Origin: Escherichia coli
GTDB lineage: Bacteria; Pseudomonadota; Gammaproteobacteria; Enterobacterales; Enterobacteriaceae
Length of the DNA stretch: 64,000 nt
Reading direction: 5' to 3' (one strand)
Assembly: GCF_013315695.1 (NCBI RefSeq)
Contig: NZ_CP054353.1
A program made the translations under genes and the position numbers. Below the pieces are notes generated by a model. That model was given only the letters and a program-made list of their open reading frames with translations, was not told where the DNA came from and did no database searches. This document shows positions 22,276-22,793 of the stretch, piece by piece. Position 1 is the stretch's first letter. Each line of letters begins with the position of its first letter.

Positions 22276-22793
22276 TTTTTCGTGGGATGAGCTAAGGCTT
22301 TCAGCTTTTTTAGATACACAAGCCGCGTTTCAAGAAATCGAACTTGCCTTTCAAGATCCTCAATGCGTCGGTCTTTTGACAGCTCCAATGCTGATGCCGC
22401 TTTTTCTGGATCAACTGATATTGCAATGTTTCTTTTGGTGCCAATCTTGAGCGCGCGTAAACCAGCTTCTCCGCGCTCTTCATAAACCTTCAGCCACCTG
22501 GCTACAGAACCACTACCAGCAAGCATAAAGTGAGCAGCAGCCTGATTAAGGGACATGTGCTGCTCGATCACAGCTTTCACGACCTTAATACGCAACTCAG
22601 GATCAGCACTAACACCTTTAGGTTTGGGAATTAAACCTTTTTCTCCATGTTTTTCATAGAGGGCAACCCATGTCCTGACCTGGGTTCGGGGGACACCAAA
22701 ACGTGCCGAGATGATCCTGTAACCATCATCAGTAGTGAAGTAGTGATTCACGACTTCAAGGCGCTTTTCAAAAGGGTATTTTGGCTTTGACAT
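22272..22793 (-). CDS. insJ: IS150 OrfA (InsJ), HTH DNA-binding protein
   Basis: 173 aa with IS3-family OrfA features; a slippery A AAA AAG motif lies at its 3' end. Confidence 0.95.
   Translation of the reverse strand: MSKPKYPFEKRLEVVNHYFTTDDGYRIISARFGVPRTQVRTWVALYEKHGEKGLIPKPKGVSADPELRIKVVKAVIEQHMSLNQAAAHFMLAGSGSVARWLKVYEERGEAGLRALKIGTKRNIAISVDPEKAASALELSKDRRIEDLERQVRFLETRLVYLKKLKALAHPTKK

Follow-up and report, generated by a model that had tools for sequence, protein, structure and literature searches.

Does the IS150 copy that lies beside hokA in this Escherichia coli genome still carry the signal by which ribosomes shift into the -1 frame and make the OrfAB transposase, and can the element still move? 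The question concerns a stretch of 64,000 nucleotides (contig NZ_CP054353.1, assembly GCF_013315695.1), hereafter called the window, for which an earlier note had reported a slippery heptamer at the end of insJ and had judged the element to be probably transposition-competent. The single IS150 copy within the window is a structurally complete element of the IS3 family, IS150 group. We consider it highly likely, with a probability of about 0.92, that this complete element carries a canonical -1 programmed ribosomal frameshift signal and that slippage there yields the OrfAB transposase.

The element, its transposase and the frameshift signal

A repeat search delimited the element by 31-nt imperfect terminal inverted repeats spaced 1381 nt (Table 1). 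The repeats are 71% complementary and give the element the ends TGTACTG...CAGTACA, that is, 5'-TG...CA-3'. Two consecutive open reading frames lie between them, orfB being in the -1 phase and overlapping orfA, and the whole is flanked by cspA and hokA on one side and by glyS on the other. The IS150 of K-12 (insJ/insK, b3557/b3558; MG1655 3720633-3722075) is inserted at the same hokA/sokA locus, has the same length of 1443 bp and is alike in its ends and its reading frame layout. The two copies are identical at 1427 of 1443 positions (98.9%), with 16 substitutions and zero indels, and their OrfAB sequences share 99.3% identity. By ISfinder practice, elements with more than 95% nucleotide identity count as the same IS. 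The substitutions include three amino-acid changes (M159V, S221G and T258I) and a single change in the right inverted repeat (T>C at IS position 1430), a variant that is also found in copies that have transposed. No difference falls within the 31 nt of the left repeat, the first mismatch being at IS position 45. The window copy is moreover 100% identical to copies annotated by the NCBI pipeline as 'IS3-like element IS150 family transposase'.

Table 1. Positions of the IS150 features in the window.
Feature	Position	Strand	Basis or remark
Complete IS150 element, 1443 bp	21398-22840	-	inverted repeats and K-12 comparison
Left inverted repeat (IRL), TGTACTGCACCC...	22810-22840	-	repeat search and K-12 comparison
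Right inverted repeat (IRR), ending ...GGGGTCAGTACA	21398-21428	-	repeat search and K-12 comparison
orfA (insJ), 173 aa, HTH DNA-binding protein	22272-22793	-	open reading frame; Pfam HTH_28, 1.6e-23
orfB reading frame, -1 relative to orfA	21424-22329	-	annotated insK 22275-21424; Pfam HTH_21, rve, rve_2, rve_3
Predicted OrfAB transposase, 456 aa	21424-22793	-	translation through the shift
Slippery heptamer A AAA AAG, -1 shift site	22305-22311	-	in phase; conserved in relatives
Spacer CUGAAA, 6 nt, heptamer to stem	22299-22304	-	sequence reading and fold
Stem-loop	22251-22298	-	arms 22298-22289 (GCCUUAGCUC) and 22260-22251 (GAGCUAAGGC)
Catalytic D301 codon (GAT)	21892-21894	-	invariant in alignment
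Catalytic D361 codon (GAC)	21712-21714	-	invariant in alignment
Catalytic E397 codon (GAG)	21604-21606	-	invariant in alignment
K404 codon	21585-21583	-	invariant in alignment
Direct repeat CACTT, hokA side	21393-21397		empty site reads GCCTCACTTTGATT
Direct repeat CACTT, glyS side	22841-22845		probably 3-bp duplication CTT plus extra CA

The predicted OrfAB protein is obtained by reading 22793-22305 in frame 0, reading base 22305 twice and continuing to 21424. It matches the Pfam families HTH_28, HTH_21, rve (6.7e-29), rve_2 and rve_3 and scores 412.1 bits on the NCBIfam model for IS3 family transposases (NF033516; cut-off 160), and PGAP annotates the identical protein, WP_087522250.1, as a two-piece CDS with the label 'programmed frameshift'. 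An alignment of 10 OrfAB sequences (the window copy, the K-12 copy and eight relatives) showed D301, D361, E397 and K404 to be invariant in all of them, with 59, 35 and 6 residues between, which agrees with the spacing of the IS150 subgroup (approximately 57-60 and 35 residues, with the lysine six past the glutamate; PMC5771124). The DDE residues are therefore unmutated relative to the reference, and the three amino-acid changes from K-12, of which M159V is the only one in OrfA, all affect positions that vary among the relatives.

At the end of orfA the minus strand reads CGG CTT GTG TAT, then CTA AAA AAG, the spacer CTG AAA, and GCC TTA GCT CAT CCC ACG before the final AAA AAG TGA. The heptamer that the earlier note described here is thus present, and it stands in the phase X_XXY_YYZ of insJ (CUA AAA AAG, 22311-22305). 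The range of 22290-22310 given for it covers six of its seven bases together with the 6-nt spacer and the 5' stem arm, and misses the first base. Placing the heptamer where insJ and insK overlap proved right for the reading frames and not for the annotated genes, which share only GTGA (22275-22272), 30 nt further downstream. Since the orfB frame is open from 22329 (the preceding stop, TGA, is at 22332-22330) and the orfA stop lies at 22274-22272, the heptamer sits inside a true frame overlap of 58 nt (22329-22272). A second, non-canonical G AAA AAG at 22281-22275 falls within the hairpin loop, directly before the orfA stop. None of the 16 differences from K-12 lies within IS positions 530-590, which hold the heptamer, the spacer and the stem, so the slippery site is not mutated relative to the reference either.

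Downstream of the spacer, the stem is a perfect 10-bp inverted repeat that encloses a 28-nt loop with the orfA stop in it. The 81-nt region folds with a minimum free energy of -20.4 kcal/mol (z = -3.44), and none of 200 dinucleotide shuffles was as stable. Published rules for IS3-family stimulators (PMC4066793) call for a stable hairpin 4-10 nt past the motif, with a G-C first pair and at least three pairs more; the IS150 hairpin follows a 6-nt spacer, which fits this range, opens with G-C, C-G, C-G, U-A and extends over 10 bp. Rfam has no family for the IS150 frameshift element, and its nearby matches were cspA and sok only.

According to this model, ribosomes on the orfA mRNA would arrive at CUA AAA AAG and be impeded by the stem-loop 6 nt downstream, so that a fraction of them would slip back one base on A AAA AAG. 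The slipped ribosomes would go on in the orfB frame and join the HTH region of OrfA to the DDE catalytic domain, the resulting OrfAB fusion being the transposase, and the ribosomes that do not slip would terminate 13 codons later and release OrfA alone. The ratio of OrfAB to OrfA would then set how frequently the element moves. The passage of PMC4066793 that cites Vogele 1991 counts IS150 among the proven instances in which a stem-loop stimulates -1 frameshifting, and the corresponding statements in PMC5771124 and PMC10379815, both citing Vogele 1991, put its efficiency at approximately 50%. By extension from this published IS150 work, slippage at the present site would be expected to be highly efficient, and the copy itself would be expected to be expressed. 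An intact IS150 frameshift signal is, as such, already known and expected (Vogele 1991) and is annotated automatically; the confirmation of an intact annotated mobile element is useful only for judging the genome stability of the strain.

Mobility of the allele and of this copy

The exact 1443-bp allele occurs at seven or more other sites, most of them with clean 3-bp target duplications, which indicates that this sequence has transposed recently. Clean duplications were seen at five exact-allele insertions. These lie beside a plasmid hok gene (TCG), beside prophage hokD (GGG), at an intergenic site unrelated to hok (ATA), beside hokB (AAC) and beside hokE (CCC), where a second exact copy is found without a clean duplication. 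The exact IS150 allele is therefore mobile. Among 20 further IS150 copies sampled, all had a heptamer and stem arms identical to those of the window copy, and the -1 frame was fully open in 18; the remaining two are interrupted by other IS elements. Gene calls for an orfB product of 121 aa had been considered as signs of broken copies; this was rejected, as they are gene-caller artefacts and the frame is open there.

With the slippery site, the DDE residues, both reading frames and both inverted repeats intact, the earlier judgement that the window copy is probably transposition-competent holds up as a reading of its sequence. Because the element is a complete IS150 with its ribosome-slipping signal intact, this copy very probably can still move. 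A signal could, however, be intact in a copy that is effectively immobile, being fixed and vertically inherited at hokA and unexpressed or unexcised, possibly owing to a poor promoter or to two extra bases at the IRL junction. We regard this as unlikely, even though several observations point in its direction. The nearest complete genomes hold one chromosomal IS150 only, at this very site, so the lineage of the window gives no sign of activity; a low copy number is, however, what would be expected of a tightly self-regulated element. The IS allele tracks the strain background at the hokA site, which suggests long residence, but several other sites have received the identical 1443-bp sequence, and four identical copies, one of them at hokA, are present in isolate 131. 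As for expression and excision, a consensus scan found no promoter-like site above chance near IRL, a result that is therefore uninformative on expression, and bases flanking the inverted repeats are not known to block transposition in the IS3 family. The single K-12 copy, with an identical signal, moves rarely: it accounted for just 2 among the 758 new insertions of mutation-accumulation lines (PMC5009759). In E. coli B, IS150 shows very high activity (PMC5289635, PMC5419217). We thus retain the reading of a complete element that is very probably still mobile.

Conservation of the signal among IS150-group relatives

The frameshift signal was compared with those of IS150-group elements from plasmids (loci L007-L015), whose OrfAB identity to the window copy ranges from 94.5% to approximately 45%. 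Counting the window copy, 9 of 10 elements carry the heptamer in phase at the equivalent place near the end of orfA, and the heptamer-bearing relatives include Bacillus and Enterococcus members. ISKpn8 and unnamed elements from enterobacterial, Bacillus and Enterococcus plasmids thus resemble IS150 both in the heptamer and in a stem of the GCCUU...AAGGC type that begins 6 nt after it, and differ from it in protein sequence, in loop length (23-46 nt) and by compensatory changes in the stem. The exception is an element on an Enterobacter plasmid (L008), which reads CUU CAA AAG at 783-789 in place of the CUA AAA AAG found elsewhere and so keeps only the A_AAG tetramer. This element, with approximately 65% protein identity, retains the stem and is annotated as an ordinary frameshifted transposase; it exemplifies a partial loss of the frameshift signal and may be a low-frameshifting variant. 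In a Ralstonia element, the hairpin found at a comparable distance is a different one, of 9 bp.

Nine elements entered a stem alignment of fixed length, in which loops were trimmed and arms placed by hand, so that the alignment was fitted to the structure. With this proviso, 98.9% of its cells form standard pairs and four of the ten pairs show compensatory changes, and pairing falls to 16-51% in slid controls in which the 3' partner was moved by 1-3 columns. Part of the conservation of the stem is due to coding, as the sequences of the two arms also code for conserved peptides (KAL in OrfA and ELRQ in OrfB). The information therefore lies in the compensatory changes, conservation alone not being decisive.

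The hairpin of IS150 is simple and has a long loop, unlike the signals of IS911 and IS3, the former of which includes an upstream Shine-Dalgarno-like stimulator and the latter a pseudoknot. By eye, no Shine-Dalgarno-like sequence was found in the 30 nt upstream of the IS150 heptamer. IS911, IS3 and ISSau2 have in common with IS150 a heptamer of the A6G type in the orfA/orfB overlap, accompanied by RNA structure, and the production of OrfAB beside OrfA (PMC4066793, PMC5771124).

The same comparison bears on whether OrfAB might arise from slippage of RNA polymerase on the run of six A rather than from ribosomal frameshifting, which we hold to be very improbable. A conserved stem 6 nt downstream of the run, with compensatory changes, is the hallmark of a ribosomal stimulator, and efficient transcriptional slippage generally needs runs of more than six A. 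Transcriptional realignment on A/T runs does occur in some IS3- and IS5-family elements (PMC6211511, PMC10379815), but IS150 is treated as a proven ribosomal case (PMC4066793). A reading in which two consecutive lysine codons happen to give an A-rich run, with no recoding role for the heptamer, is effectively refuted by the comparative data, for although AAAAAAG alone is not rare in the window (32 copies against 14.6 expected from shuffles, approximately twofold), its position and phase are kept across Gram-negative and Gram-positive relatives, orfB has no independent means of joining the HTH domain, and a recoding context (no fewer than 100 codons open in phase upstream, frame 0 ending within 40 codons and the -1 frame staying open for 150 codons or more) surrounds only one of the 32 copies, that of IS150 (166 codons upstream, a stop at 13 and a -1 frame of 293 codons).

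Insertion at hokA/sokA and target preference

The Rfam model for sok (RF01794) matches the minus strand across both ends of the element, at 22764-22919 and 21320-21475. The first match is full-length and above threshold and runs from the hokA leader into the left end of IS150; only model positions 1-83 are genuine and the remainder is forced onto IRL, the rest of the locus beyond the IS forming the second match (41.7 bits). The insertion of IS150 has therefore divided both the hokA leader and the sokA gene. The window copy is flanked by a direct repeat of 5 bp (CACTT), and the same allele at other sites, like the IS150 of strain c1-17 at this same hokA site, by 3 bp, which in c1-17 is a canonical CTT duplication. 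Two extra bases at 22841-22842 (CA on the plus strand, TG in the orientation of the IS) separate IRL from the 3-bp duplication. An insertion at hokB has the same extra TG next to IRL, and other strains have the hokA insertion without it; it looks like recurrent slippage or imprecise cleavage of the end. A true 5-bp duplication was considered and dropped: given the CTT found in c1-17 and H105 at this site and the recurrence of the TG at hokB, 3 bp plus 2 bp is the likelier reading. A terminator-like 15-bp stem with a T-run lies just inside IRR (21441-21475, plus strand) and faces transcription that enters the element from the hokA/sok side. Transcripts reading in, a truncated Sok RNA among them, could be stopped there, and such sites were no commoner than chance in the terminator scan.

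The IS150 at the hokA site of K-12 differs from the window copy in several respects. It has the opposite orientation and no flanking duplication, whereas the window copy has its direct repeat, and 38 bp (window 21355-21392) are replaced, almost exactly an imperfect palindrome over the mokA start that the window keeps. In a census of 5426 complete genomes, the hokA site was empty in 2817, of the K-12 type (inverted, with 38 bp lost) in about 1640 and of the window type in 899 by a 3-kb probe or 561 by a strict junction probe. A further 95 genomes are of the H105 type, which combines the K-12 orientation with an intact palindrome and a CTT duplication and includes some ST131 strains, other ST131 strains having the empty site. 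IS150 thus occupies the hokA leader of approximately half of the complete E. coli genomes, and three arrangements of it occur. Two IS alleles, 16 differences apart, track the flanking strain background and not the arrangement, and either allele can be found in the arrangement of the window type and in that of the K-12 type. For this reason the K-12 type seems, from these sequences, to have originated on two or more occasions, each time with the same endpoints, and the IS150 at the hokA site looks old and vertically inherited. The simplest route to the K-12 type, although unproven, leads through the H105-type state and a subsequent adjacent deletion by IS150. We had at first favoured a second, inverted insertion that would form a giant palindrome and then resolve to the K-12 form; it was dropped, and is equally unproven, as adjacent deletion is simpler given that the intact state in K-12 orientation is found in H105 and that IS150 adjacent deletions, which leave no duplication, are frequent in the LTEE (PMC11708052).

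Beyond hokA, IS150 copies overwhelmingly adjoin hok-family loci (hokA, hokB, hokC, hokD, hokE and plasmid hok), usually with IRR toward hok. An insertion preference of IS150 has been described (PMC10379815), and hok/sok loci are already recognised as hotspots in evolution experiments. Insertions at hokC in the laboratory lines of REL4536 (16972 and 16989; PMC5419217) are homologous in position to natural insertions at hokA and hokD. Only these hokC coordinates were usable, as the REL606 coordinates given in PMC5419217 for hokE and mokB insertions correspond to no hok loci in NC_012967.1. When 13 independent insertion sites were compared in the orientation of the IS, the sequence T/C-G-R-G-G-C-Y was found directly after the duplication on the IRR side in 12 of them; in the window this flank is 21386-21397, reading AAGTGAGGCTAC on the minus strand. 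Four of seven sites unrelated to hok match TGRGGY exactly, against a background frequency of 7.9e-4 (binomial P approximately 1e-11). The motif TGRGGCY is also similar to the inner portion of the ends of IS150 itself (TGGGGTC and TGGGTGC).

A simple sequence motif thus appears to explain the recurrent hits of IS150 at hok positions. A broader proposal, which we put forward as tentative and somewhat less probable than its opposite, is that IS150 is nearly site-specific: its home would be the hok/sok leaders, where it would recognise TGRGGCY and insert with IRR abutting the motif and normally toward hok, and the K-12 arrangement would be derived and recurrent. The K-12 type would then recur with identical endpoints because the same motif lies on the other arm of the palindrome at the mokA start. 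Only the motif, its likeness to the inverted repeats and the recurrent rearrangement could be new in this proposal; the literature searched gave no description of TGRGGCY as a target motif, and the older literature may well contain one. If confirmed, the motif would allow the targets of IS150 in production and evolution strains to be predicted and would explain the frequent inactivation of chromosomal hok/sok loci.

The link that the earlier note drew between this IS150 and other IS-associated rearrangements in the window found no support, as those involve IS1 and the IS110-family element ISEc45, not IS150. Compared with strain MS 21-1, with which the window is collinear only in blocks, an IS1 at about 28488-29255 replaces approximately 4.9 kb (yiaB, xylB, xylA, xylF and part of xylG), an additional IS1-associated deletion in the window, and ISEc45 (29847-31330, transposase 30074-31207) splits what remains of xylG. 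Judged from these gene losses, xylose utilisation has probably been lost. The IS1-xylG'-ISEc45 junction was found in two complete genomes only, OZ547117 and MSB1_4I, both of which differ from the window beyond IS1. MS 21-1 in turn carries the IS21-family element ISEc10 between tag and yhjY (locus L016, 18341-20592), which is absent from the window (13726-13739), and the tag-yhjY region differs among close relatives mainly by IS gain and loss. At the start of the window, positions 1-1346 are occupied by a 483-bp unit repeated in tandem approximately 2.8 times. Each copy encodes a small toxin of the Ldr type (...LAELGMAFWHDLAAPVIAGILASMIVNWLNKRK), and together the copies constitute a long-direct-repeat type I toxin-antitoxin array.
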